Shown piece after piece: positions 6,754 through 39,283 of a stretch of DNA of 64,000 nucleotides. Each line of letters opens with the position of its first letter. Within the stretch, counting starts at the first letter, position 1. Source of the stretch: Candidatus Omnitrophota bacterium (GTDB lineage: Bacteria; Omnitrophota; Gorgyraeia; Zapsychrales; Fredricksoniimonadaceae); the NCBI GenBank assembly GCA_015232565.1, contig JADFZK010000011.1:358-64357 (forward strand), given 5' to 3'. The notes under the pieces were generated by a model. That model searched no databases, was not told the DNA's origin, and saw nothing but the letters and a program-made list of their open reading frames with translations. Position numbers and translations under genes: made by a program.

Positions 6754-7854
6754 TTACCCTTTTTTCAGGGTGAATTTTTCCATCATTTCAATGAAACGGC
6801 CAAATAAATATTTCGCGTCGTTAGGCCCCGGCGCCGCTTCCGGATGATATTGCACGGAAAATAACGGATATTTCTTATGGCGCAGGCCTTCGACCGTCTT
6901 GTCGTTAAGATTAATATGTATCGCCTCAACTTCAGCTTTATTCAAACTGTTTATGTCTACACAAAACCCATGGTTCTGGGAGGTAATGCTAATACGCCCG
7001 GTCTCCAGGTCTTTCACCGGATGGTTACAGCCGTGGTGCCCGAACTTGAGCTTATAGGTGCGGCCGCCCAGCGCCAGGCCGATCATCTGATTACCCAGAC
7101 AAATGCCGAATATCGGCTTTTTTCCGATCAGTTCCCGGACGGTGGCAATAACATTGGTGACCGCGGCTGGATCGCCCGGGCCATTAGCCAGGAAGATGCC
7201 GTCGGGATCGGCCGCCAGGATATCGGCGGCGCTGGTAGTAGGCGGAACCACGCTGGTTTCAATGCCCAGCCTGGCCATTTCGCGCAGAATATTCAACTTG
7301 ATACCGCAATCGATAGCCGTCACCCGGTACTTCTTCTGGCCTTCGGCTTTCCATACATACGGCTTTTTGGTAGCCACTTCCTTGACCCAGTCGGCGCCTT
7401 CCATGGACGGCACCTTGGCCAGCTTGACCTTGAGGCTCCGGGGATCGAAATCGTCGGTGGAAATAAGGCCCTTCATAGCGCCCGCCACCCGTAAATGACG
7501 GGTAAGCGCGCGCGTATCCACGCCTTCAATACCGATGACCTTGTTCTCGTCCAGGTATTGAATAAGGCCTTTATTAGCCCGGAAATTGGAATAGGTGCGG
7601 CAGAATTCCTTGACCACGAAACCCTTCACATGCACCCGGGAGGATTCCACGTCTTCATCGTTAATGCCGTAATTGCCAATAAGGGGGTAGGTCATCACCA
7701 CGATCTGCCCGGCATAGGAAGGATCGGTAAGGACTTCCTGATAACCGGACAGGGCGGTATTAAAAACAACTTCGCCGGCCGATTCTCCGTGGATATTCAG
7801 GGATCTGCCGTAAAAACATTTGCCGTCTTCGAGGTAAAGGACTGCTTCTTTCAT
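6754..7854 (-). CDS. carA: Carbamoyl-phosphate synthase small subunit (glutamine amidotransferase)
   Basis: 366 aa. CPSase small-chain N-domain plus GATase (GICLGNQ); immediately upstream of carB. Confidence 0.96.
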
Positions 7855-7915
7855 CTGCGACTATTCTTATTTAGAGGAGTCAAAATAGGAGGAAAATCCT
7901 TCCCAAAACTTGCAC

Positions 7916-7944
7916 TACTATAACACCGTTTTTCTTTATGTCAA
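7916..7944 (-). promoter_or_regulatory. Sigma70-like promoter of the carA-carB-purF-pyrG operon: -35 TTGACA (7944..7939), 17-bp spacer, -10 TATAGT (7921..7916).
   Basis: Minus strand reads TTGACAtaaagaaaaacggtgtTATAGT, about 60 nt upstream of the carA ATG. Confidence 0.55.
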
Positions 7945-8206
7945 GGCGGGCAAAAATGAATGTGAATTCCCAGAGTAAACACCAAATACTGCCCCATTTG
8001 CTCCTTCTTCGTGGCCCTGGATCCTTTCTGTCCACTATCCCCAAAAATCAGCACGTAAAAACAACCACGTCGACAAAATCTTTATTATCAGACGCTATGA
8101 AATTAAACGGGCTTCCGAGGAATGCGCACCTAATCGTGCACTAATCATGCAAATCGTGAATGATTGAGGGAAAACATATTTGACAGCCCGCCGAAGCGCG
8201 CCCCTG

Positions 8207-8258
8207 AGCCCTTGTTGAACCCATTATGAGCCCTTTGAGCCCTTTATGAGCCCTTTCC
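8207..8258. repeat. Short tandem GAGCCCTT(T) repeat: 4 copies at 9/12-bp spacing overlapping the stop codon of the DUF4062 gene. It encodes the KGS/KGL C-terminal tail.
   Basis: gagcccttt at 8228, 8237 and 8249, plus gagccctt at 8207. Confidence 0.6.
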
Positions 8259-9705
8259 CTTTCAAATGATATGCTGTTCCTCTCCCAGTAACGCCAAGCC
8301 TCTCAATAACCCCTTTCTTCAAAAGATCCATCAAATCCCGAGTAGCTGTAGCCTTGGAAGCGCCAGACATCTCCCTATAATCATTATTCGTAATCTGACC
8401 ATTCTTCTTAATTAACTTTACGGCCCGCATTTGCCTTTCATTCAACCCCATACTCAAAAGAACGGCATCCGTTAACACATCCCGGGAAATGATCGTCTTA
8501 AACTCCAAATTCCTCACCGAAACAAACTCCGGCTCCGGCAAACCGGCTTCTTTACATTGCCTGATGATCTCCATTGTCCCGGATCCGGCCTCCTGAACGT
8601 AATTCCCGTAAAACATGACCGATGCCAGTCGCGGATTGGCAGGATGCGATGTGTGCGTCTTTTTCAGGTCTTCCAGCTTGAGACTTGGCGGCAGTGTCCC
8701 CGAATTCAACACCTCCACGCGATCAAGAAAGACCATAACCTGTACTGCCGATGTCGTGTTGTAATTTCGATGCACGACGGCATTAATAATCGCCTCCTCA
8801 ATGGCAAACGACGGTATCTCCAACGGACGACTGACTTGAGCTGTGTTTTCCTGCTGAATCACCGGCAAACGGATAGCATCAAACACAAACCCGACCGCTT
8901 TGTCCACCTGCTCAAAAAGATTGCCCTCGTAAATATGATACGACGCGAACGGCTTCTGAACCTCGATGCTTGAAAACTGGATGCATTTAATCTTAGCCTG
9001 ATCAAAGAACTTGCGCGGTTCTTTGCCAAATAACAAAATCGCGGCATTGGTCAGTTTTCCATCTTTCAACAGCTTCCAATGAGTAAAGACATCTTCGGTA
9101 GACGCATCTACCGAGATCGGATAATTGCGCTTTTCCCTGGCGGTTCGCAAACACCACTTCACCTTATCCTCGTCAATATCTGAAAACTTAGCACCCTCGC
9201 ATATGCGCTGATCAAACTCGGCCCGGCTAACCACTCCCTGTGCTTTTAAGAACGTGATCAGGCTTTCATAAACGAAGTCAGTTAATTCAACCGTCGAATT
9301 GTAGCGACGATAACTGTAGCCAGACCTTGAGTCTTTGATCTCTTTGATGAGTTTCTGGACGCCTGCCTCGCGCTTCTTGTCGTTTGCGCCATTCTCGCCC
9401 TTGATGTAGAACAAAATCTCTTTATGATGCTTCTGGGCTTCCCGGAACTCCGCCTCCGTAGGCGACACCTCTGCGCCCTTGGAACCGCCATAACGATCAC
9501 CAAGCAACCCAATGTAAACATCACTTCCTCTGACCTCATTAAGATACGCGGTCTCGGGAGATTTTCCCTGTGCTGGCGCGTCCTCAAACAAGAACACATC
9601 GAAATGCTACGACAACAGCACATCGCCAAGAACGGACACCTTCACTGCCCGCCTCTCGGCTTTCAGATCCTTCTGCACTCCGCTAATGAAAACTTTATAT
9701 TTCAT
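8224..9705 (-). pseudogene. DUF4062 / Schlafen-like AlbA_2 divergent AAA / HATPase_c_4 (RecG-C-terminal-like) protein. The reading frame is interrupted by an in-frame TAG at 9609..9607 after codon 33. The ORF track restarts at GTG 9597.
   Basis: Minus strand from ATG 9705 translates MKYKVFISGVQKDLKAERRAVKVSVLGDVLLS*HFDVFLFEDAPAQ...DVYIGLLGDRYGG, a canonical DUF4062 N-terminus split by the amber codon. The C-terminal ASVMFYGNYVQEAGSGTMEI motif fits HATPase_c_4. Lower GC than flanking genes. Confidence 0.7.
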
Positions 9706-9843
9706 AATTTCTTCCACTCAATAGTGGTTGATTTGGCATCGCCGATGTATCGATTCCATACTTATTTCTCGCCTATAGTTTGCTCGAAATCAAAAACAAT
9801 TTGTTTCTTATTCATTGGTCACCCTTAGTGTCTATTTGTTGTT

Positions 9844-12480
9844 CTAATGGCCCAGGCGTTTTTTGTTGGCCAGGTAATTGGCCTCGCCGAGGATCTTGCG
9901 GGCCAGGGCGTCCTTGTTCTGGCCATTATCAAAATCGTAGTCCATGACCGCCAGATAGCTCAGCAGATTGCCGAACGGGGACTGCAGCATTTCCGGGCTG
10001 GAGGAGGACAGCGCGTCGATCTTGCTGACATATTCACCCGGAGAATGGCCTATACGGATACCTTCCTTGCGGAAACGGTCGATGAATTCCGAAACGGTCA
10101 ACAGCTTTACCTCCCGGTCGATGATCTGCGCCCAGGAGCGCGAGGAACGTTCCAGCGCCTGCCAAAGTTCATTGATACCCACGATAGTTTCCGGAAGCGG
10201 AGTTTCTGCGGCCGCGGCACCAGCAGCTTTGGAAGCCAGCACTTCACTCTCCACCTCTTTGCCCAGCCGGCGGCGCACCTCCTGCTGATAAGCGGCATTG
10301 AGTGCGGCGCGTTTTTGCTGGACCGCGGCATTCTGATACGCCGCATGGGCCAGTAATTGCCTCTCGGTAGTCTCCTGCACCGCTTGCGCCGCCTGGGCCT
10401 GCATAAGGGCATTGCGCTTGGCGGCATATTCCGCGTACTGCCGGATCTCGCCGTTCAACTGCGCCTGGGTTTGCGCTTCCTTATACGCCTTCATTTCCTG
10501 AGCCTGTTTATACGCGTTCAATTCCGCCGCGTTCCGGTAGGCCGCCGCCTGCTGATATTGCGCCGCTTCCATTCCCTGCTTTTGCGCCACCGCCTGAACC
10601 ACTTGCGCGGCCTGTTCTTCTTCGGCTTTCTTTTTGGCCATGGCCATTTCCATAGCCTGCTTTTGAATGGCATATTCTTCCGCGGCTTTTTGCGCGACTG
10701 CCTCTTGATACTGCCGCTGGGCCACCGCCTGCTTGTACGCCTCAACCTGCTGGGCCTGCTGATACGCCGCCATTTGCTGAGCCTGCTGTTGCTGCATCAT
10801 TTGCTGTTGGTACTGCTGGGCGGCCTGGGCCTGCATTTGTTTTTGTTGCTGGACCCGGCGCTGAACCGCCGCGGCGGCGTGCGCGGAAGAAGCCTGGCAC
10901 AAAAAAGGGATCAACAAGATAAATAGCGCAGGCTTTTTAAAACCCGCGAACAGCGAACGGAATTTGGCCAGGAAGCTTATCATAGAAATTATTATAACAA
11001 AGGCCAGGCACGCCCATACAAAAACATCGCCAAATTTGGTATGGAAAGTGCTCCCGCTGGCCAGCGGAATGTCCAGGGCGGTCCAGCCGGTAGATTGCAA
11101 AGCGACTGCTTTTAGTACCCGGCCGCGGGAATCAAAACCCGCACTCCAGCCGGTATTCGCCGCGCGCACCAGCGGCCGGCCGGTCTCCACCGCGCGAAAA
11201 ACTGCCAGCGCCCCATGCATCATTAAAGCTTCCGGCCGCTGAAACCAGCCGTCGTTAAGAACGCTTATGAAGAACCCGGCATTTCGCAAAGCCAGGTCCC
11301 GGGCCAGCGCCGGATATCCTTCCTCAGAACAGATCAGCAACCCGGCGCTGATCTTGTTATCACCCAAAGCAAATAACCCGCGCCGATCACCGGGTAAAAA
11401 ATGATAACTTCCCATCCCGGCAGTACGGGCCAGCCAGACCGAAAATGGATCACTGGGTAAATATTCGCTAAAAGGCACCAGATGGCGCTTGTAATAAATG
11501 TCCCGCCATTGGCCCCGCCGGTCCAGAAGCAGTAAAGCATTAAGATCGTGGTCGTCCTCGGAAAGCAGGGCCGAACCCAGGACGAACCCCACGTTCAGGT
11601 TGCGCGCTACCATTTCGATCCGCGGCCGCCAGAGCGGATCGCGCAAAATATCATCGGGAAAAGCGGTCTCGGGCCAAATAACAATATCGGGCCGGGCCGC
11701 CTGCACGGCTTTCTTGCTGAGGATCAAATGCCGTCCGACATTTTCGTTATACAACGCAACGTTGGCCTTGTCCGCCCGAGAGATATTGGGCTGTACCAAC
11801 ACCACGCGCAAGCGCTGACCGGCCGGTAGGCCCTCCGTCATCATAACCCCCGAACCAATAAAGCCCACAATAAAGGGAAAGGTGATCATCAACCAAAAGA
11901 ACGGCGCTCTTATGACGCCCGACCTCTTCTGCCTGATCAGCAAGAACAGCCCGGTAGAAAAAAAGAGCAACAGCCAGCTGACCGCGTAGACCCCCCCAAA
12001 ACGCGCAGCCTGCACCAGCTCAGGGATCATGGCCTGGGAAACCCCCAGTCCCCAGGTAAAACCACCCAGCAATTGATTGCGTAAATATTCACTAACGACC
12101 CAGGCACAAGGCAGAAAGAACAGGTCGCTGACCCAACTGCGTCGCTCAACGAGGCTCAAGACCGCAAAAAGCGCACCCTGCAAAGCCAGCGCCAGAACCA
12201 GAACCACATAACCTGCCAGCGATACCGGCACCAGCCACCAGAGCAACAAACCATACGCCGCCACACCCCAAGCGAATCCCAGCCCGACCTTAAGCCGCCA
12301 GCCCTTACCCTCCAGTAAAAACAAAAGGGGGATGGCCATCAGCCACCCCCCGATAAATAAACCGTTAATGAATATCAAATTAGAAAACGAAAGCCAAAAC
12401 AAAACCGCCGATAACGCTAAAAACAAAAAAATAGTGTTTAGCATAAGCTTCCCGGGCCAGGTGAAGCGCTCTCCAGCCAC
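9844..12480 (-). CDS. lnt: Apolipoprotein N-acyltransferase (Lnt; 8 TM helices plus CN-hydrolase domain, ~aa 1-500) continuing in frame into a signal-peptide-like hydrophobic segment, a ~190-aa Q/A-rich coiled-coil region and a ~150-aa C-terminal domain of unknown function.
   Basis: 878-aa ORF with no stop between the Lnt C-terminal TM helix and the extension. An internal ATG at 10983 begins MISFLAKFRSLFAGFKKPALFILLIPFLCQASSAHA (signal-peptide-like). Q/A-rich repeats (YQQAQ, AYKQA) span 10300-10890. The stop codon is TAG at 9844-9846. Confidence 0.75.
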   Translation of the reverse strand: MAGERFTWPGKLMLNTIFLFLALSAVLFWLSFSNLIFINGLFIGGWLMAIPLLFLLEGKGWRLKVGLGFAWGVAAYGLLLWWLVPVSLAGYVVLVLALALQGALFAVLSLVERRSWVSDLFFLPCAWVVSEYLRNQLLGGFTWGLGVSQAMIPELVQAARFGGVYAVSWLLLFFSTGLFLLIRQKRSGVIRAPFFWLMITFPFIVGFIGSGVMMTEGLPAGQRLRVVLVQPNISRADKANVALYNENVGRHLILSKKAVQAARPDIVIWPETAFPDDILRDPLWRPRIEMVARNLNVGFVLGSALLSEDDHDLNALLLLDRRGQWRDIYYKRHLVPFSEYLPSDPFSVWLARTAGMGSYHFLPGDRRGLFALGDNKISAGLLICSEEGYPALARDLALRNAGFFISVLNDGWFQRPEALMMHGALAVFRAVETGRPLVRAANTGWSAGFDSRGRVLKAVALQSTGWTALDIPLASGSTFHTKFGDVFVWACLAFVIIISMISFLAKFRSLFAGFKKPALFILLIPFLCQASSAHAAAAVQRRVQQQKQMQAQAAQQYQQQMMQQQQAQQMAAYQQAQQVEAYKQAVAQRQYQEAVAQKAAEEYAIQKQAMEMAMAKKKAEEEQAAQVVQAVAQKQGMEAAQYQQAAAYRNAAELNAYKQAQEMKAYKEAQTQAQLNGEIRQYAEYAAKRNALMQAQAAQAVQETTERQLLAHAAYQNAAVQQKRAALNAAYQQEVRRRLGKEVESEVLASKAAGAAAAETPLPETIVGINELWQALERSSRSWAQIIDREVKLLTVSEFIDRFRKEGIRIGHSPGEYVSKIDALSSSSPEMLQSPFGNLLSYLAVMDYDFDNGQNKDALARKILGEANYLANKKRLGH

Positions 12481-19107: not shown

Positions 19108-19911
19108 TTAAGTCCGCGGCCGGGCAAAAGCAACTGTTTTTTCGAGGGGCCGTTTACGTGCGATCAGGATCAATGACTGGCCAAAAGGCGGCGGGCAAAA
19201 GCTTTCCATTGCGCGCAGGAACGGCACGATCCGGTCCAGCGCCGCGCACGTTACGGGATCGAATCTTTGCTGACGCAAAATTCTGCCAGCGATAAACCAG
19301 GAAAAAACGCCCAGAGCATTCATGTAATATGCCCGCTCCACCTGCAAGCCGGCGGCCACCATCTTTTGCCCCAATTCCCTCCGGGTATAACGGCGCACAT
19401 GCCCCACCATATTGTCCAGGGAGCCGTGAATGGCCGGCAGAGCCGGAACCATGATCAACAAACGCCCTCCCGGAGCCAGAATGCGCGTCATATTGCCAAT
19501 TGCTGCCACATCATCGTCAATGTGCTCAAGAACATTCAACGCAATGACCGTATCCGGCAAATGCTCCTGGATAATGGTCGATCTCTCCAAAGCTGAAATA
19601 TCGGCCAACGGTAAAACCTCGTAACGCGGCTTACGACCGGCAAAACGTTTTTGCAGGAAGGCGGCCATTTCCGGGGCATGATCTGACAGGATGATCCTGT
19701 CTACCGACGGCAGATCATACAGCTCGGCCATATCGCCGCGGCCACTGCCCACATCGAAAACCACGCCGGATAAATACGGCCGAAAATGCGCCATGACCCA
19801 TTGATTATACCGGTCCGCCCGGGCCACAACCTCCAAAGTCGCAAACAGTTCACTCATTTTACGCCCGCCCCGGCACTGGAGATATTTCTGTTTATAAAAT
19901 ACAGCCCACAA
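19108..19911 (-). CDS. Class I SAM-dependent methyltransferase. The likely true start is the internal MSELFATLEV at about 19857.
   Basis: VFDVGSGRGDMAE motif I (GxGxG-like) and acidic motif II; 267-aa ORF. Confidence 0.7.
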   Translation of the reverse strand: MWAVFYKQKYLQCRGGRKMSELFATLEVVARADRYNQWVMAHFRPYLSGVVFDVGSGRGDMAELYDLPSVDRIILSDHAPEMAAFLQKRFAGRKPRYEVLPLADISALERSTIIQEHLPDTVIALNVLEHIDDDVAAIGNMTRILAPGGRLLIMVPALPAIHGSLDNMVGHVRRYTRRELGQKMVAAGLQVERAYYMNALGVFSWFIAGRILRQQRFDPVTCAALDRIVPFLRAMESFCPPPFGQSLILIARKRPLEKTVAFARPRT

Positions 19912-20057
19912 TCCTTAGCATTCCCCAACCTTAAAATATAATCGACCACTGCAAACCACACTGGTGCGTAACCAGAAATATTTCTTTACTGTAACAAAAT
20001 GTTATATAGGATGCTTTTTGTGTCAATCAACCCTTATAACAACAGCCAACAGATTGT

Positions 20058-20756
20058 TTGATGAAGATTTCTATCCTTATCCCCGTTTTTAATGAGTCAG
20101 CTACAATCTTAGCGCTTATCGACAAAGTGCTGGCCGCCGATCTACCCGCTGGGATAACCCGGGAAATACTGGTTATAAATGACGGCTCACGGGATCAAAC
20201 ATCCTCTCTGCTCAAATCCCTGACAGAAAATCCGCTAATCCGCCGCTTTGACCACCCGGTCAACCTTGGAAAAACTGCGGCTATCAGAACAGGTTTCCAA
20301 CATGCCGTTGGCGATATCATCATCATTCAAGATGCCGACCTGGAATACGACCCCTGCCAATATTCTTTATTGCTAGACCCGATACTGACCAGGAACAAAT
20401 CCATTGTTTACGGATCACGGCTAATGCGCAAATCAAACAAAATATACGCCATTAATTATTTAGCCAACAGAGCGGCGGTCATTACACTCAACTGGCTATT
20501 CAAAACACAATTGACCGATTTTCACACAGGATTCAAAGTGTTTAAAAGAAGCCTGCTTGAAGGCATAATCCTGACTTCTGAAAACTTTTCATTTGATACA
20601 GAATTAACCGCAAAATTTCTGGCCAAAGGGCTGGAGATCCACGAAGTGCCCATCGATTATGTACCCCGCACAAAGAAACAAGGCAAAAAGATCACCTGGG
20701 GACAAGCTTTCGAAACATATCTTGTTCTGTTCAAATGCCGCTTTACCCAAAGATAA
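20058..20756 (+). CDS. GT2 family glycosyltransferase, DPM1/GtrB-like polyprenyl-phosphate hexose synthase type (soluble, 232 aa)
   Basis: SILIPVFNE ... VINDGSRD ... QDADLEYDP (DAD motif). AT-richer than the core genes. Converges on the rSAM gene with a 14-nt 3' overlap. Confidence 0.8.
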   Translation: MMKISILIPVFNESATILALIDKVLAADLPAGITREILVINDGSRDQTSSLLKSLTENPLIRRFDHPVNLGKTAAIRTGFQHAVGDIIIIQDADLEYDPCQYSLLLDPILTRNKSIVYGSRLMRKSNKIYAINYLANRAAVITLNWLFKTQLTDFHTGFKVFKRSLLEGIILTSENFSFDTELTAKFLAKGLEIHEVPIDYVPRTKKQGKKITWGQAFETYLVLFKCRFTQR

Positions 20757-21783
20757 AAGCACCCAAGTTCCCAACAATGGTCGGATACGCTTCGCAGGGA
20801 GCCCAACAGCGCGGACAATCCATATTCTCGATCTGCTTCTTTAACGACTGCACCTCAGGATGCGCAATGATCCTGCCAATATCATAATCATTATCGCTTA
20901 ATTTACCTATGGGCCGATCATAAAACAAACAAGGAAACACCATGCCATACGCATCCACAAAAACACTGCCATGCAAAGCCTGACAGACAAAAGGGATCTT
21001 TTCACCTTTCCAGTGTTTATCCAAATAACGCATATATCTGTCTTCCAGAAAGCCTTTAAACGAGAACGCCTTCTTAAAACTTCGTAAAGATGCCCGAAGA
21101 TGCTTCAGATCCACCCCTTCGCACCCTTTTGCTCCCATGGCCTGATTGCCATAATAATGCCCGGAAACATGATAAAAGTTAAAGTGCAAGTCGTCGGCCG
21201 TAAAACCAGGAAGATCTTTTTTAAGGCCAACAATGAATTCCTCCACATATTCAAAGTTCAAAGCTGAAATGGTACAAGAAATTGAAACCCGGCCTTTCTT
21301 AAGGCGCTTCACAGCCTTAAATGTTTCGATACCGCGCGCATATGAGCCCTGGTGCCCGCGCAATTGATCATGAACACCTTCGGGACCATCAAGGCTTATT
21401 GAGATCATCGGACTTTGCCTGAGCCGAATTATCTCCTGCGCCACTTTGACCATTCGATCAGGAAACATCCCATTGGTCGTCATATGAAGGATCTTTAAAT
21501 TCTTAGACTGCCCTATAATTACCCGAACAACATCGATCAAGTCTTCTCTCAAGGTAAGTTCGCCACCCGTAAGATCCAACCAGCTCAAATTGGGCAATTT
21601 CCGAAACATCCTTTCTATTTCACCAACCGACAGCTCTGATCGCAAAGGCATTTTCCAAATAGAACAGATCTTACATTTCAAATTACACCTGAAAGTCAGG
21701 CAAAAAAGCAACTTTGCCACCGACTTCAACTGCCGGGCGTTTGCTCGATACACATTCTTCAAAAAAGTCAGGTTTTTACCCAT
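20743..21783 (-). CDS. Radical SAM protein with a C-terminal SPASM/twitch-like Cys cluster
   Basis: CNLKCKICSIW (CX3CX2C) near the N-terminus, and CQALHGSVFVDAYGMVFPC ... CPRCWAPC in the C-terminal third. Low GC (~35-40%). Confidence 0.75.
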   Translation of the reverse strand: MGKNLTFLKNVYRANARQLKSVAKLLFCLTFRCNLKCKICSIWKMPLRSELSVGEIERMFRKLPNLSWLDLTGGELTLREDLIDVVRVIIGQSKNLKILHMTTNGMFPDRMVKVAQEIIRLRQSPMISISLDGPEGVHDQLRGHQGSYARGIETFKAVKRLKKGRVSISCTISALNFEYVEEFIVGLKKDLPGFTADDLHFNFYHVSGHYYGNQAMGAKGCEGVDLKHLRASLRSFKKAFSFKGFLEDRYMRYLDKHWKGEKIPFVCQALHGSVFVDAYGMVFPCLFYDRPIGKLSDNDYDIGRIIAHPEVQSLKKQIENMDCPRCWAPCEAYPTIVGNLGAFIFG

Positions 21784-21812
21784 AGCCCTGTAAAATCGAT
21801 TAGTTAGTCCCG

Positions 21813-23690
21813 TCAGTTATTGCGTTTAGGATCAAGATAAAGCCTAAAGCCCTTTATTTCAGCCGCCTTAATGAACTGCCGACCATTAAAAACGTCTGCT
21901 CCGGAAATGTTTTCTCCCCCCAGGTCAATTACCGCACAAGGCGTGAATTCTCCCAAAGGATACCCGAGCGCCGAAACCGGCCCCACCACATTAACATGTT
22001 CTACCCGAACATCCGGCCCCAACAGAGCCTGCCAAGTATACTCCCACGCATCCGACCCTAAAATGATACCAACATTGCGGCACCCCATCCCGTTCAATGA
22101 CTCGGACACCTGATCAACCAATGAATATTCCCCGGGATGTTTTGCAAAATAATTCTGTGTGCGACTAAAGCGGAGCAAGCTTTTCTCGGATAACAAGCGC
22201 CGTGTATTGTTTAATACCAAAGGCTGTATGGCCACCAGGAACGCTACCAAGACAGCTCCAATGAGTAATTTGCGCGAAGCGGCCTTCTCAAATACCACCG
22301 CCACTAGCGGCATAGCCATTATAAAAAGCGGCAAGTGTAACCGGCTTATAAAAGGGTTCCATTGAGCCAAAATACAAAACATCAAAGTCTGACATAATCC
22401 TGTCATAACAAAAAACCATAAAACACGCTCTTTATTCCGCACTCGCCAAAACAATGCCCCCGCAATAACGACCAAAAACATATGAAAAGAATTTGGCATA
22501 TAATCTTCATCCAGATAATACCACAAACGCAAAGGCGCTCCCTCTGCTGGAATATTACACACCTTATCCCACTGCAAAACGACACTCTCAATAAAACGAT
22601 TCCACTCTTTCCCAGGCAACGCAAGCTGCGTTGCCGCATTCTTCAAAACATTTGAAACTATTTCCACGCCTCCCACTCGCACCATTGCGGCGTCGCCGCC
22701 TTTTTTCATGGCGACAATGACATTTTTATCCACCTGCGTCAGTCGACACAAGAATGAACCATTAATGATCCCCACCATAAACAACGTTAAAATTAACAAC
22801 CACGCTTTACGGCGAATTCCAACTCCAGAAGAAAACATCACTACCAAAACCGCAGTAACAGCCAAAAACCAACCCGAACCTTTGGTAAAAGCTGCCAAGC
22901 CCGCTCCTGCCGCGGTAAGCCAAAGCCACCTGCCTTGCCCGCTTAATAATACCTTCAATGCAAAACAGGCCGTACACAATACCAAGAAAGCAACCACGTA
23001 ATCATTCTGGGTACTTGAACCCTGCAGTATGCCCATAGGCAGGGTCAATGCCAACAAGGCCGCCGTAATCTGCCCTAAACGCGACGCTCCTAGCAAACCA
23101 GCGGCCAAAGACACTCCCAAAGCCGAACACACCATTGCCGACCATTGCACCATATTGGCGCATCGATCCCCTCCGCTCAATATCTGCAAATGCAGAATAA
23201 TATATTCAGCAAAAGGCAAATACACCAACTGTCGAATAATGTTCGTAGGATAATTCATGACACTGCTATTCTGCCGCCAATGGCCCACGCGCGCCATGTG
23301 ATAGGTCATCGAATCCCAGGTATTCGGCGGCGCATACAAAGCAATAAATCCCACCACCAGCACAATGAAGGCGGCCATACTCAAAAGGACTTTTTCAATC
23401 CAGGTTAAGGACCAACACGGCCATGACCAACGGCCAACGGAAGCAATACGCGCAATCATAAAACTTATGGCCACCACCAGCAAAGACCAGAACGTTAACA
23501 GGGAGAAGAAATTGATCTGCCGGATAGGAGAAAGCGCTTCGGTGGAAAAAACGATAAGAACGCCGCTGATCACATTGGCCGCCAGCAAAGCCTCGCGCGC
23601 TTCCAACCCGCGCAAGGTCAGCCAACGCCATAATAATAAGATAAAAACCAGCGGCAAAAACGCAAAAACTATCATAAACCCAAATTCCAT
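21813..23690 (-). CDS. Polytopic membrane protein, GT-C-like putative glycosyltransferase (copy A of a tandem pair)
   Basis: 625 aa, >10 predicted TM helices, conserved loop PPNTWDSMTYHMARVGHW. N-terminal ~225 aa nearly identical to copy B; C-terminal half diverged and lower GC. Confidence 0.55.
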   Translation of the reverse strand: MEFGFMIVFAFLPLVFILLLWRWLTLRGLEAREALLAANVISGVLIVFSTEALSPIRQINFFSLLTFWSLLVVAISFMIARIASVGRWSWPCWSLTWIEKVLLSMAAFIVLVVGFIALYAPPNTWDSMTYHMARVGHWRQNSSVMNYPTNIIRQLVYLPFAEYIILHLQILSGGDRCANMVQWSAMVCSALGVSLAAGLLGASRLGQITAALLALTLPMGILQGSSTQNDYVVAFLVLCTACFALKVLLSGQGRWLWLTAAGAGLAAFTKGSGWFLAVTAVLVVMFSSGVGIRRKAWLLILTLFMVGIINGSFLCRLTQVDKNVIVAMKKGGDAAMVRVGGVEIVSNVLKNAATQLALPGKEWNRFIESVVLQWDKVCNIPAEGAPLRLWYYLDEDYMPNSFHMFLVVIAGALFWRVRNKERVLWFFVMTGLCQTLMFCILAQWNPFISRLHLPLFIMAMPLVAVVFEKAASRKLLIGAVLVAFLVAIQPLVLNNTRRLLSEKSLLRFSRTQNYFAKHPGEYSLVDQVSESLNGMGCRNVGIILGSDAWEYTWQALLGPDVRVEHVNVVGPVSALGYPLGEFTPCAVIDLGGENISGADVFNGRQFIKAAEIKGFRLYLDPKRNN

Positions 23691-35332: not shown

Positions 35333-38300
35333 TCACGGCAAGCCGACCGGCCGGGCATTGTTACTATTTAGGGACCAGACACTGCCCGTCATCTGCATCA
35401 TATTGATGACCACCGGAGCAAAGCCGTCCACGCCGCGGGTCTTGATGCGCTGGATCTCGGCAGGATCAATGTTGACCTTAACCCCGTTTCCGGTGCGTTC
35501 CACGGTCATATTGAGCATGGCGGAATCGAAGTCGATACCACCCACCTCACTGTTCGCAGAATAATCAATTCCTAACGCTTTAAGATATCTAGGAATATCA
35601 TCGCCTGGTTTATTATGTTCTTTATTCCGGTCTTCTCGACTAACGGGAAAGGAAGATGCATGTAAGCGTGTATTATTAGGATCAGTACCATTTCCTCCCA
35701 TAATGCTGCGCAACTCAACTTTCTCTTTCACAGTCAACGCCGCTCCCGCATGCGCCATACTATCCAAAGGCTCAATCAACCATACCTCCACCTCACCACT
35801 GGTCACATTCCCAACCACCGACTCAAGAAGATTAACCGTTTGCCCTTCTTTTTGAATAGTGCGCCCGGCCAGCCCGTTATAAAAATCCCGGGTCCAACTA
35901 TCGGAAGGCCTAAAACGCGGCAACTGATGAATAACACGAAGACCCAGCTCCTTCAATCTGGCCTTTACCTTCTCTTGAAGTTCGTCGATATTGGGTAAAG
36001 CCAAAGAATCCGGACGAAACATAATACTAGCCACTTTATTAAGCCCAGCCCCAGCCACCAGGGCCGGTGCGGCTGACTGCAATTCATCATTAACTTTCTT
36101 GGCCAATGCTTGCGCTATTACCATCTTGGCCACTGCCAAAGGAAGAAAAAAGTCCTTATCTGTTAAAGTTGAATCCAATTTTTTTGCTTTTTCGGCATCC
36201 TGTTCGCTCAAACTTAATTCCTGCGCTATGTTTTCCGGAGAAACATCAAATCCATTTTTCATGGCGCTCGTCAACCAATTATTTACGATTTGATAATCGT
36301 AAACGCCAGGCGTTCCATTATAAATATTCCACATTGATACACGAAGTTTGATTGCCAGCGCACGATAAACATCATTTGATTCAATGTCGAGTAATATACT
36401 GCTAGGAAGCAAAGCCAGGGCCCATTCAAAACCAGGGATCCCGGCCAGTGCCAGGCGAATCGCCGTAGAAGAAGCACCGCCCAGATTACGATCCTGATTC
36501 AACATAATCCGACCGCTTTTAATAAGATCGTCAACATCGAGCGTTTCTCCATGAGTCTTCTCGCCATCAAACGAACTGCGTTCATTAAAAAGACCTATCA
36601 CCTGGGTTGTTTCTGTCACTAGGGCGGTTTTTAACACCTCTGTCTGCGCCGCAATAATATCCAGCCCAAAACCTTCACTTAAAAGACGCCCGATAAAATC
36701 TGCTTCCCAACCGGTTTCCGGCATTTCTTCCACCCCGCTACTGATCTTCACTAAACGTTCAACGCGTTCTAAAACATCCTCTAACAATTTGGGAATTGTA
36801 TCCCGCACAACTTTGCCATCAATCTCTTCAGGAAGCCTTAATCCGCTTATTGGATCCCTTTTCTTTCCCGGAGCCTTACCGTGCATATGATCAGTACCAA
36901 CAAGGTAATAAATAATTAATTCCTTAAGCTTCTCCGGATTCGTTAATGCCAGCCTAACCAGGAATTCAACAACTTGCGTTTCTCCATCGACAGTTCCAAT
37001 ATGCTCCAGCGGCATCGAAATGAACGGCTTCATCCCAGGTTTTTTAACGAAACGCGATATCATTTTCTTGCGATGAACCTCAGTAAACAAAGTTAAAATC
37101 TTGCGAAAATCGGCCCCTTGCAGACGCATTATACAATTTGCGGTCTTTGTTCTAACAAAACCTCTCCTTATCGCATCATCCTGACCAAAATGATACGGAT
37201 CGGCCGCCAACGGATAAAACACAAGTGCATGCTCATTGATTCTGTCATCCATCACCGCCATCCCAATACCTGCCGTGGAACGTAAAATCCTCCTTTCTTC
37301 GTCATCCAAAATAAACTTAATTTTCATTTTTGTTTCTGGTGTTAATCCCGGACGCTCAAGCAACTTCCAGTTAAGTTCTTGCAACAACTCGTTTTCCATA
37401 ACCAGAACATCACTTACGGTCTTATTTTCGCGAATTTCATCAGCGTACTCTTTGCGCGCCCATGAAAACGCGGCCAATTGTTTGCCCAGCCAATCGTCCT
37501 GAGTAACTGCAAAGATCACCGCACGGGTCAACATTCCAAAGGCATTCTTTCTATCATGCACTCGTTTCAAAAACGCTTTCTCTAAAACCAGGCGTACTCC
37601 ATCGTAATAAACCCCAAAAGTTTCTTTCTTTCCATTGTCAACCACCATAACCGGCTTGCCTGTTTGACCCAACACATGCCAGGCCAAAGAAATGCTCGAC
37701 TCGTATTCGTACTCGCTTTCAATCGGAACCATTTCATTATACTTAACCGTAGATAAAGCAACGGGGCTATCAAAACCGGCATTGGAGAAACGAGCATCAT
37801 TAATCAGTTCGTCAATCAAAATGGTTCTTAATGCCTTCCCATCCACATCAACTGGAGAATTGATCTTAACCTCTCGCCCGTTGAATTCCAAAAAAACCGA
37901 AGTTTTGTCCTTAAACTTAATTCTGATCCTGTTATTCCCCATAACTTCAAAAGTGTCTCCTTCAGCAATCAGATCATTAGCATCCAGAACCAGCTCGTTT
38001 TTCCGACCCAATAAATTAGCCACAGCAAATGCCACACTTGGCAGTGATTGTGACGTTAAAATCCCTGCCGGGAAATCAGTGGGCAACATTACAATACGAG
38101 TGAAAACTTTATTCGGTGTTGCCAATGCCACCGTTGCTTTTATTTGCTGTCCATTATTTGTAGCGCTCTCACTGAAATCTTTCGATGCCGCGGACTGAGG
38201 CCTGGCCTCCAGACGCTGCGCCAAATCAACATAACTTTCTCCACCGGAAAAATACTTACGCGGAATTATTTCGCCTGTTACCGGGTCAGCGTCTTCATGA

Positions 38301-39283
38301 ATCAAATTAAAAGCCCCCTTGCTGAATTGCTTCAAGTATTCCTTATAAATACGCTTGCGAGCATAAGGATCATTGGAATTCACTCCGGCCGTTTTCTTCT
38401 GGTTTGCGTACACCTGGGACAACAAGCTGTCTTTGAGCGCTTTTTTGTACCAAGTCGCCAGCACCATAGCGCCGTATACCTGGCGCAATTGGGCAAAAGC
38501 TTCTCCAGTGTTAACTTCTTTTTCAATCGCCGGGAGCATTACTTCGCGCATTACCTTCAACTCCATCTCCTGCATGGCATCCGAAGGCGCCGCCTGATCC
38601 TCGGCCGCACCCTGCGCCTTACTGGCCGCCAGCCCAAAATAGTCCCGCGCCAGCATTACTTTCATGGAAAGCTCACCCAGTAAGACCGTATTGTTATTCT
38701 CGTAAACCACGGCCTTGTTTGGCACTATCCAAACCTTGCTTAGGGTGTCCAGCGGAACCTCGGTAGTACCCAGCTGTTCTTTGGCCGCGGCATATACCCG
38801 GCTCCAGAAAGCTTTTCCGGTATCCGAATCCGGATGCAAAATGCTTGAAGCATAACGCTTTAGCGCACTATCCTGCGCCAACATAACGCGGCCCATCTCG
38901 GTTAACCCGAGCTCATTGGGAATAATGCGATCGTTCTCGTAAGGGGAAAGGTTAACCCACAACTCTTTTTCGGGTATCGTTACTGCGGCCAGAAAATATT
39001 TCGCAAGTTTCTCTGTTTCTTTCTTTAACGCTTCACCGCTTAACTCGGTGGAACCGTTATCTACCACAAAATCAAACACCAAGGGCTCATCAACACGCAC
39101 ATTTAGAGCGCGCAGATGTACCGGAAAATATCCAGCATTCGCGGAAACGGTAGCAACAGCCGGCAAGTTAAAAGCCACCTGCGCCATTGCCGGCACCGGG
39201 AAAACCGAATTAACGCTAAAAACCAAAGCTAAAACTGCCGCCATCCGCTTTACAAAACCAGACTTCTTTGCGCAATTCAACAT
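35333..39283 (-). CDS. Giant secreted protein of unknown function (1316 aa, N-terminal signal peptide)
   Basis: MAAVLALVFSVNSVFPVPAMAQV signal-like N-terminus. No domain recognised by eye. ~45% GC versus ~58% for the core genes. SD GAGGA lies 6 nt upstream of the ATG. Confidence 0.7.
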   Translation of the reverse strand: MLNCAKKSGFVKRMAAVLALVFSVNSVFPVPAMAQVAFNLPAVATVSANAGYFPVHLRALNVRVDEPLVFDFVVDNGSTELSGEALKKETEKLAKYFLAAVTIPEKELWVNLSPYENDRIIPNELGLTEMGRVMLAQDSALKRYASSILHPDSDTGKAFWSRVYAAAKEQLGTTEVPLDTLSKVWIVPNKAVVYENNNTVLLGELSMKVMLARDYFGLAASKAQGAAEDQAAPSDAMQEMELKVMREVMLPAIEKEVNTGEAFAQLRQVYGAMVLATWYKKALKDSLLSQVYANQKKTAGVNSNDPYARKRIYKEYLKQFSKGAFNLIHEDADPVTGEIIPRKYFSGGESYVDLAQRLEARPQSAASKDFSESATNNGQQIKATVALATPNKVFTRIVMLPTDFPAGILTSQSLPSVAFAVANLLGRKNELVLDANDLIAEGDTFEVMGNNRIRIKFKDKTSVFLEFNGREVKINSPVDVDGKALRTILIDELINDARFSNAGFDSPVALSTVKYNEMVPIESEYEYESSISLAWHVLGQTGKPVMVVDNGKKETFGVYYDGVRLVLEKAFLKRVHDRKNAFGMLTRAVIFAVTQDDWLGKQLAAFSWARKEYADEIRENKTVSDVLVMENELLQELNWKLLERPGLTPETKMKIKFILDDEERRILRSTAGIGMAVMDDRINEHALVFYPLAADPYHFGQDDAIRRGFVRTKTANCIMRLQGADFRKILTLFTEVHRKKMISRFVKKPGMKPFISMPLEHIGTVDGETQVVEFLVRLALTNPEKLKELIIYYLVGTDHMHGKAPGKKRDPISGLRLPEEIDGKVVRDTIPKLLEDVLERVERLVKISSGVEEMPETGWEADFIGRLLSEGFGLDIIAAQTEVLKTALVTETTQVIGLFNERSSFDGEKTHGETLDVDDLIKSGRIMLNQDRNLGGASSTAIRLALAGIPGFEWALALLPSSILLDIESNDVYRALAIKLRVSMWNIYNGTPGVYDYQIVNNWLTSAMKNGFDVSPENIAQELSLSEQDAEKAKKLDSTLTDKDFFLPLAVAKMVIAQALAKKVNDELQSAAPALVAGAGLNKVASIMFRPDSLALPNIDELQEKVKARLKELGLRVIHQLPRFRPSDSWTRDFYNGLAGRTIQKEGQTVNLLESVVGNVTSGEVEVWLIEPLDSMAHAGAALTVKEKVELRSIMGGNGTDPNNTRLHASSFPVSREDRNKEHNKPGDDIPRYLKALGIDYSANSEVGGIDFDSAMLNMTVERTGNGVKVNIDPAEIQRIKTRGVDGFAPVVINMMQMTGSVWSLNSNNARPVGLP
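35335..35457. repeat. Direct-repeat copy B (123 bp) covering the last 40 codons and stop of the giant gene
   Basis: Aligned to 34026..34148; the copies differ by ~10 substitutions. Confidence 0.9.

Follow-up and report, generated by a model that had tools for sequence, protein, structure and literature searches.

A DUF4062 gene on a Schlafen-type ATPase chassis, inserted between lnt and carA and interrupted by an amber codon in an Omnitrophota bacterium

We describe a gene at positions 8224 to 9705 (minus strand) of a 64,000-nt stretch of DNA, referred to here as the window, from an uncultured Candidatus Omnitrophota bacterium (contig JADFZK010000011.1). This gene is probably a recently acquired single-gene insertion whose intact form would be a one-polypeptide defence protein of the abortive-infection type, combining an NADase with an ATPase, and whose copy in the window is a null allele. 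The initial annotation of the window had labelled the gene Schlafen-like. The corrected label is a TIR-like NADase (DUF4062) on a Schlafen-type chassis, that is, on a GHKL ATPase followed by a winged helix-turn-helix (wHTH): only the ATPase-HTH chassis is shared with Schlafen proteins, and the TIR-like NADase takes the place of the Schlafen nuclease. This arrangement varies two defence themes that were described recently, and we found no description of it in the accessible texts.

The minus-strand frame extends from an ATG at 9705-9703 to a TAA at 8226-8224, and comprises 493 codons if it is read through. Its sole interruption is a TAG at 9609-9607, and both the frame and the stop are as initially annotated.

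8224..9705, minus strand: disrupted gene for a protein with DUF4062, a helical linker, a GHKL ATPase and a winged helix (from translation, Pfam, homologues and an AlphaFold2 (AF2) model).
9607..9609, minus strand: in-frame amber codon, codon 33; GAG (Glu) in relatives; in the loop that links helix A to strand B of the NADase domain.
9595..9597, minus strand: GTG, the first possible restart codon (codon 37), 9 nt past the TAG; start of a 457-aa open reading frame (ORF).

Comparison with intact homologues identifies the replaced residue as Glu. GAG is found at the aligned codon 33 both in locus L001, which is 92% identical in nucleotides across the gene and encodes a 95%-identical protein, and in locus L002; with L002 as the outgroup, the G-to-T change is assigned to the window branch. 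We examined two alignments, of 20 and of 74 sequences; at least 90% of members (73 homologues) have Glu in the TAG column, which lies within the family motif ..VLLSE[Y/H]FDVFLFED... The earlier proposal of a nonsense mutation, here a single-base change at a near-invariant Glu, is thus well supported. Apart from codon 33, translation of the window copy reveals no frameshifts and no further stops.

Termination after residue 32 keeps only strand A and helix A. The longest uninterrupted ORF, from GTG 9597, has 457 aa. No Shine-Dalgarno-like motif is present in the 22 nt upstream of this GTG (GCTGTTGTCGTAGCATTTCGAT), and according to the structure model the truncated product suggested in the initial annotation would be missing three elements of the NADase fold: all of strand A, all of helix A and half of strand B. 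It would also be without F6, a residue that is invariant in the 74-sequence alignment. Because such a product has no strand A, F6 or helix A and starts inside strand B, with no Shine-Dalgarno motif before it, NADase function should be lost with or without a restart.

DUF4062 is the effector of two single-gene abortive-infection systems, Swarozyc and Evangelion, described in 2026 preprints. In the Swarozyc protein KpSwz (PDB 10wc, 11cq, 11cv), DUF4062 is a TIR-like NADase that depletes NAD+ on phage infection and needs both E97 and an auxiliary domain, and its helix A forms the core dimer interface (bioRxiv 10.64898/2026.05.01.722283). In the Evangelion protein Eva01, defence is abolished by mutating F11 or E87, or by truncating the auxiliary (AUX) region (bioRxiv 10.64898/2026.06.25.731849). 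The domains of the window gene are arranged as follows.

9235..9705, minus strand: DUF4062 / TIR-like NADase domain, codons 1-157 (Pfam, 10wc_A match, Foldseek).
9454..9456, minus strand: Glu codon 84 (GAG), aligned with the catalytic Glu E97 of KpSwz.
8476..9063, minus strand: GHKL (Bergerat-fold) ATPase domain, codons ~215-410; the HATPase_c_4 match at codons 320-397 is 8515..8748.
8794..8796, minus strand: Glu codon 304, in the N-box E-x-x-x-N-A-x-x-H; presumed ATP-hydrolysis residue; invariant.
8263..8469, minus strand: C-terminal wHTH, codons 413-481 (Pfam; model predicted local distance difference test score (pLDDT) ~90).

A Pfam search, run with codon 33 masked, placed the full DUF4062 model (PF13271, positions 1-82) on residues 4-90 at 68.8 bits (cutoff 24.7), and HATPase_c_4 (PF13749) on residues 320-397 at 66.1 bits (cutoff 26). 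The winged helix at residues 421-482 was matched by HTH_24 (22.9 bits against a cutoff of 21.9, E 6e-5), MarR, DeoR and DIP2311-like_C. Two of the three domains named in the initial annotation are therefore found above their cutoffs, but the third, AlbA_2 (PF04326), has no Pfam match in the protein at E<=0.1. Elsewhere, NCBIfam returned weak HTH matches only, and PADLOC models of Argonaute-associated proteins (Schlafen-bearing Argonaute partners) match residues 160-433.

The N-terminal assignment does not depend on Pfam alone. By sequence comparison, the solved KpSwz DUF4062 structure 10wc_A matches residues 2-174 (E 1e-6). In the hidden Markov model alignment the SPTE of the window protein falls on the SFTE of KpSwz, where chain residue 82 is E97 given a 15-residue construct offset. 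Among 74 family members T83 is invariant and E84 is conserved in at least 90%. We also modelled the protein with AF2 from a diverse alignment (pLDDT 90.6, predicted template modelling score 0.79; pLDDT above 80 over residues 1-157); this model replaced an earlier one, built from a shallow alignment in which all sequences were more than 60% identical, that was poor at residues 234-410 (pLDDT 63.5). Residues 1-157 are modelled as an alpha/beta domain, with strand A at 3-7, helix A at 12-27, strand B at 35-39, and a helix that starts at P82-T83-E84. For this domain, Foldseek finds the SARM1 TIR domain (E 4.6e-4, template modelling score 0.67-0.69 normalised to target), TIR-STING (~E 4e-4) and nucleoside deoxyribosyltransferases. 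Sequence and model together point to a TIR-like NADase-type fold that keeps the position of the catalytic Glu, and the intact domain would be expected to hydrolyse NAD+. In the window copy the frame of this domain is broken by the TAG at codon 33, and so the copy is a disrupted member of the DUF4062 NADase-type proteins.

Beyond the N-terminal domain, the model contains a helical linker at residues 160-210, a domain of seven strands and three long helices at residues ~215-410, the winged helix at 413-481, and then a disordered Lys/Gly tail. The best Foldseek match of the model is 3LMM (DIP2311, a solved Schlafen-ATPase-HTH protein; E 2e-14). In 71 diverse sequences of the DUF4062 and Schlafen types, the invariant residues are F226, P298, E304, N308, A309, H312, G374, G376 and P392, a set that includes the GHKL N-box (ExxxNAxxH) and the glycine-rich lid motif (G2-box).

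The relationship to Schlafen proteins becomes clear when the relatives are divided by where their similarity begins. A profile search of 1.84 billion cluster representatives gave 891 relatives at E<=1e-30, in two groups. Members of the first match from profile position ~1 and have an N-terminal DUF4062. Members of the second match only from position ~130-165, and carry SLFN_AlbA_2 at their own residues 5-115, followed by HATPase_c_4 and an HTH. Using hhalign, window residues 128-493 align with canonical residues 100-460 (probability 100%, E 2e-103, 32% identity), and the N-termini, that is, the first 127 residues of the window protein and those of canonical Schlafen proteins, do not align. Since the shared region begins past SLFN_AlbA_2 and the N-termini are unaligned, DUF4062 stands in the place of the Schlafen domain. 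Judged by these alignments, residues ~128-493 are the ATPase-HTH chassis of canonical Schlafen-ATPase-HTH proteins, with the AlbA_2/Schlafen domain replaced by DUF4062.

A few relatives (P0143, P0121, P0135) have unusual architectures. One, of 897 aa, combines TIR_2 and DUF4062 with two HATPase_c_4 stretches; one, of 2918 aa, consists of repeated AlbA_2/HATPase_c_4/HTH units; and in one of 660 aa, DUF4062-HATPase_c_4 is followed by a Fic-like C-terminal domain that replaces the wHTH.

The gene lies between carA (CPSase_sm_chain and GATase) and lnt (LNT_N and CN_hydrolase), both of which are confirmed by their Pfam domains, in a housekeeping stretch that comprises pyrG, a glutamine amidotransferase gene, carB, carA, lnt and glutamate synthase. 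The relatives of its carA also place the organism in the Omnitrophota. The initial description of the gene as an insertion into this stretch holds, because the orthologous lnt-carA junctions in loci L003-L006 are without it.

7952..9858, no strand: inserted segment of ~1.9 kb, absent from the closest relative genomes.
9844..9846, minus strand: TAG stop codon of lnt, which marks the left edge of the insertion; lnt of relatives ends at the same aligned position.
7917..7944, minus strand: promoter-like site of carA, TTGACA-16 nt-TATAGT (11/12 positions match), just outside the insertion; conserved in L003 and L004.

Homology to L003 stops at window position 9859 and resumes at 7951, and the 33 bp between these points in L003 correspond to 1907 bp here. 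The edges of the insert thus fall just after the lnt stop codon and ~10 nt upstream of the -35 box of carA. The order TPR-lnt-carA-carB is kept, and the DUF4062 gene is absent, in L003 and L004 (carA 92% identical) and in L005 and L006 (81%); the distance from lnt to carA is ~120 bp in relatives with a 92% identical carA. Since the closest Omnitrophota genomes keep lnt-carA synteny without the gene, the insertion is lineage-specific. Its borders show no target-site duplication or terminal inverted repeat, its non-coding flanks have no match in 89 fetched loci or elsewhere in the window, and Rfam has no match in 7800-9950.

The homologues indicate that the gene travels alone. Homology between the window and L001 starts ~10 nt before the ATG and ends at the stop codon, with unrelated flanks on both sides. 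Other homologues are located beside AbiEii (L002), between a molybdopterin oxidoreductase and an ammonium transporter, beside a large serine recombinase, and, at ~40% identity, next to the partition genes of Legionella conjugative plasmids. There is no conserved partner gene and the neighbours differ in every context examined, which argues for a one-gene unit.

The chassis itself has precedents among Schlafen proteins. The Schlafen-GHKL pair, named the 'Schlatpase' supradomain, is present in 58.6% of 103,533 prokaryotic Schlafen proteins; most Schlatpase proteins add at most a C-terminal HTH, and in the Schlafen-Argonaute protein RzAgo the GHKL ATPase drives an ATP-dependent oligomerisation that switches the effector on (bioRxiv 10.64898/2026.05.29.728809). 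The commonest bacterial Schlafen architectures are pSlfn-HisKinase (34%) and pSlfn-HisKinase-HTH (19%) (Nat Microbiol 2026, PMC13056530). The window protein shares with the Schlatpase, pSlfn-HisKinase-HTH and 3LMM proteins a homologous linker, GHKL ATPase and wHTH, and the N-box and G2-box residues are invariant in both groups; by motif, though without direct alignment, E304 and N308 are presumed to be equivalent to E314 and N318 of RzAgo. The difference is that the AlbA_2 nuclease is absent here and a TIR-like NADase is in its position, so that by analogy the expected output would be NAD+ depletion rather than tRNA cleavage.

The resemblance to KpSwz lies in the TIR-like DUF4062 N-terminus with its aligned catalytic Glu, in the use of one polypeptide whose C-terminal region terminates in a winged-helix fold, and in horizontal spread into unrelated contexts. 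The two differ in what connects these parts. In KpSwz, a helical stalk joins the NADase to a portal-binding winged-helix AUX domain and there is no ATPase, whereas the window protein has a linker of ~50 residues, also helical, and a GHKL ATPase of ~200 residues between NADase and wHTH; moreover, the window copy is disrupted by the amber codon. Eva01 is likewise a DUF4062 core and an auxiliary region in one gene, with a catalytic Glu and a conserved N-terminal aromatic residue (F11, against F6 here, a correspondence by position only and without direct alignment). It is also carried on mobile DNA, being plasmid-borne, just as homologues of the window gene are found on Legionella conjugative plasmids. 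Its AUX region, in contrast, is short, C-terminal and without an ATPase, whereas the AUX region of the window type is GHKL plus wHTH. The Swarozyc and Evangelion texts (10.64898/2026.05.01.722283; 10.64898/2026.06.25.731849) do not mention a GHKL, HATPase or Schlafen-related auxiliary region, and no such term occurs in the supplementary file of Osinski et al.

We infer the activity, the trigger and the order of events in an intact protein from KpSwz, Eva01 and RzAgo. In such a protein, the N-terminal DUF4062, a TIR-like NAD+ hydrolase, would be the effector. An infection cue would be sensed by the wHTH, the GHKL domain or both, with the C-terminal winged helix as the presumed trigger-binding part; ATP-dependent oligomerisation of the GHKL domain would then assemble the TIR-like domains in an active form, with NAD+ hydrolysis taking place at the E84 site. 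In the window, the G-to-T change has converted Glu codon 33 from GAG to TAG, so that translation ends once strand A and helix A have been made. Loss of a self-toxic effector through the amber codon could plausibly have been favoured by selection.

It is important to ask whether the window copy shows any decay apart from this codon. The window protein deviates at ten of the columns that at least 90% of the family conserve. Eight of these deviations are shared with an intact relative, P0002; only E13D and the stop are private. Intact family members have up to 15 such deviations, with a median of 6.5. The polarised non-synonymous and synonymous changes (N/S) number 10/47 on the window branch versus 7/58 on the L001 branch (p = 0.31). 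Codons 23-33 account for four of the ten non-synonymous changes, and N/S downstream is 6/42 (Fisher p 0.04 with the stop, 0.11 without it). Relaxed constraint on the N-terminal stub was considered on this basis and rejected: the changes in this stretch are at variable positions, and the test is marginal. The substitutions in codons 23-32 occupy positions that are variable in the family, with L32S a return to the consensus, and so do not speak for relaxed constraint. With no other decay present, the lesion is either very recent or not real. We take the window gene to be a very recent null allele, and consider a base-call error less likely.

On the latter alternative, the TAG would stem from an error in sequencing or assembly, or from a minority allele that entered the consensus, and the organism's gene would actually be intact and functional; we judge this unlikely. 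The copy is otherwise pristine, with N/S not different from that of its intact sister copy. The close relatives of the window are all metagenome-assembled genomes (MAGs), so that the window itself appears to come from an uncultured Omnitrophota lineage, and the consensus of a MAG can mix strains. When metagenome contigs were scanned for the exact sequence around the TAG, leaving the variable base as N, there were 0 matches, and thus no other contig of the population. The carA product and the 457-aa ORF likewise had no exact match in the assembly index. Against an error, the stop arises at a conserved Glu by a single transversion, and single-base substitution errors are rare in assembled consensus sequence. 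A comparable lesion is present, moreover, in finished plasmid sequences. On a pLPP-like Legionella plasmid (L090 3986-5489; NZ_CP021282.1) a +1 frameshift, caused by one additional T near codon 170, divides the homologue into a 'DUF4062' coding sequence (CDS) and an 'ATP-binding protein' CDS. Six further Legionella plasmid records have the same two-CDS annotation, and a related plasmid (L091 3989-5560; NZ_CP021275.1) has an intact gene of 523 aa (WP_106195501.1). As this lesion is independent and lies in finished sequence, null alleles of this kind do occur.

A restart at GTG 9597, or at TTG codon 39, would yield a GHKL-wHTH protein with a crippled NADase, serving as a regulator or persisting as a non-toxic remnant. 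This is improbable. The GTG is 9 nt past the stop, the 457 downstream codons are intact, and one might read a retained function into the low downstream N/S of the window branch and the share of its non-synonymous changes in codons 23-33. The low N/S is, however, equally expected from a very recent mutation, and the codon 23-32 substitutions carry no signal of relaxation, as discussed above. The missing Shine-Dalgarno-like motif and missing strands also count against a restart. So do the loss of the invariant F6, which by position we take as Eva01 F11, whose mutation abolishes defence (10.64898/2026.06.25.731849), and that of helix A, the core dimer interface in KpSwz (10.64898/2026.05.01.722283).

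It is barely credible that a full-length protein is made here by recoding or suppression of the TAG, whether with a suppressor tRNA, under an alternative genetic code or by programmed readthrough. The base after the TAG is C, so that trace near-cognate readthrough is conceivable. (A C after the stop is a comparatively weak termination context in E. coli.) Yet TAG is a genuine stop in the window, as the initial annotation had noted from lnt, which ends with TAG (9846-9844) where the genes of relatives end; among 35 long window ORFs, 22 stop at TAA, 10 at TGA and 3 at TAG, the last being lnt and two others. No other TAG in the window joins two long open stretches on the coding strand, no tRNA genes are found in its 64 kb, the replaced residue, Glu, is outside the usual recoding outcomes, and all 120 homologues listed are called as uninterrupted ORFs. 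Judged from the window, then, recoding of TAG is not supported, and the alternative of readthrough raised in the initial annotation finds no backing. Equally remote is the Schlafen-like (AlbA_2) nucleic-acid-sensing ATPase of that annotation: homology to Schlafen-ATPase-HTH proteins over residues 128-493 and the PADLOC matches at 160-433 speak for it, but the canonical AlbA_2 (residues 5-115) lies upstream of the shared region, and the N-terminal 127 residues here are unaligned to it, lack any AlbA_2 match and fold in the model as a TIR-like domain.

Several observations weigh against the interpretation that we prefer, a null allele of a recently acquired NADase-ATPase defence gene. The locus is outside any defence island and its neighbours are housekeeping genes, so that it gives no illustration of the defence-island setting that the initial annotation ascribed to such ATPases. 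The accessible literature reports no NADase or defence test for any DUF4062-GHKL-wHTH member. No PADLOC model covers the N-terminal domain, and no relative was found in IMG/VR viral contigs. The family is, in addition, unusually conserved for a defence gene, at 60-70% identity across phyla; such conservation points to a recent spread between phyla or else to strong constraint.

A search of 5.8 billion proteins found more than 1500 relatives, the best of them 95% identical. The 120 that were listed are nearly all 480-514 aa long and 61-95% identical, and come from Omnitrophota, Elusimicrobiota and Poribacteria MAGs. The close group as a whole comprises more than 1500 clusters at 90% identity, 60-95% identical across the same three phyla, and appears to form one cluster at the 50% identity level: among the representatives, P0065 alone comes near the full score, and P0123, which follows as the next of full length, is 43% identical. 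In one groundwater lineage (L086-L089 7786-11316), P0012 has a small HTH_3 gene on one side and a large serine recombinase on the other, a setting that resembles the cargo of an integrative element. The two Legionella plasmid versions also differ in the copy number of a TGQV tandem repeat between ATPase and HTH (9 against 3).

The 3' end of the gene overlaps a short repeat, which the initial annotation had described as slippage-prone.

8205..8256, no strand: 11-nt tandem repeat (TGAGCCCTTTA), period 11, 4.9 copies, 79% matches.

The repeat is real; it takes in the final codons (GKGLIKGSKGS) together with the stop codon, and runs on for another 19 nt. The tail that it encodes, KGKGLIKGSKGS, is identical in the 92%-identical copy L001 and also ends three homologues that are 70-71% identical; P0009, P0010 and P0012 have the same tail. 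Since it is kept in L001 and in three homologues, the tail is a conserved feature and does not count as evidence of instability. More generally, the tail after the wHTH is a short low-complexity Gly/Lys or Gly/Ser segment that varies in length and sequence among homologues, from none, through GLIKGSKGS, up to GSGYGGGSGSG...

The insert was also described as a low-GC islet. Its GC content is indeed lower than that of the window (0.47 vs 0.525), but this is only the 9th percentile of equal-sized windows, and stretches of lower GC occur elsewhere. GC at third codon positions is 0.565 in the gene and 0.63-0.69 in its neighbours, a difference that fits a foreign origin without being extreme. The lowest-GC stretches of the window (0.43-0.44) are at ~35500-38500, inside a 1316-aa ORF (35333..39283), and at ~19800-21900; near the latter, the ORF 21813..23690 (625 aa) has no Pfam match at 1e-5.

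The spacer between lnt and carA is variable among Omnitrophota. In L004 (positions 9469-9885) it contains a different ORF, of 138 aa and with CBS-like sequence, and in the more distant relatives L007, L010, L013, L014, L016 and L017 it contains genes for glycerol kinase (glpK) and a glycerol-3-phosphate dehydrogenase-like protein (glpD). We considered the spacer as an integration hotspot for defence genes and rejected the idea, as it holds these ORFs and no defence genes. The neighbouring lnt (9844-12480, minus strand) encodes 878 aa, with normal Lnt domains at aa 24-474, followed by a ~240-aa Ala/Gln-rich stretch (65 A, 54 Q) and a ~220-aa C-terminal domain; this last domain is also conserved beside lnt in other Omnitrophota, with aa 658-876 aligning in L003-L017.

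A single nonsense mutation in one horizontally acquired gene of an uncultured bacterium is, in itself, ordinary. The family to which the gene belongs is of wider interest, as it links two findings of 2026, the DUF4062 TIR-like NADase effector and the Schlafen-GHKL 'Schlatpase' switch. We consider the case evenly balanced for a broader view, in which DUF4062-GHKL-wHTH proteins would be an uncharacterised and very widespread ATP-gated NADase defence system: the Schlafen tRNA nuclease would have been swapped for a TIR-like NADase on a common chassis, GHKL-wHTH would be an effector-agnostic switch for sensing and oligomerisation, and the amber and Legionella frameshift alleles would reflect recurrent counter-selection of a toxic effector. 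There is also a lesson for annotation, namely that proteins with HATPase_c_4 and an HTH but without AlbA_2 should not be called 'Schlafen-like'. Judging by the architecture, the GHKL-wHTH chassis would seem able to serve either of two unrelated effectors, one a tRNA nuclease and the other an NADase. The family thereby allows a comparative test of how the most common prokaryotic Schlafen architecture is activated, and cultured Legionella, with their intact and frameshifted plasmid-borne homologues, make such a test feasible.

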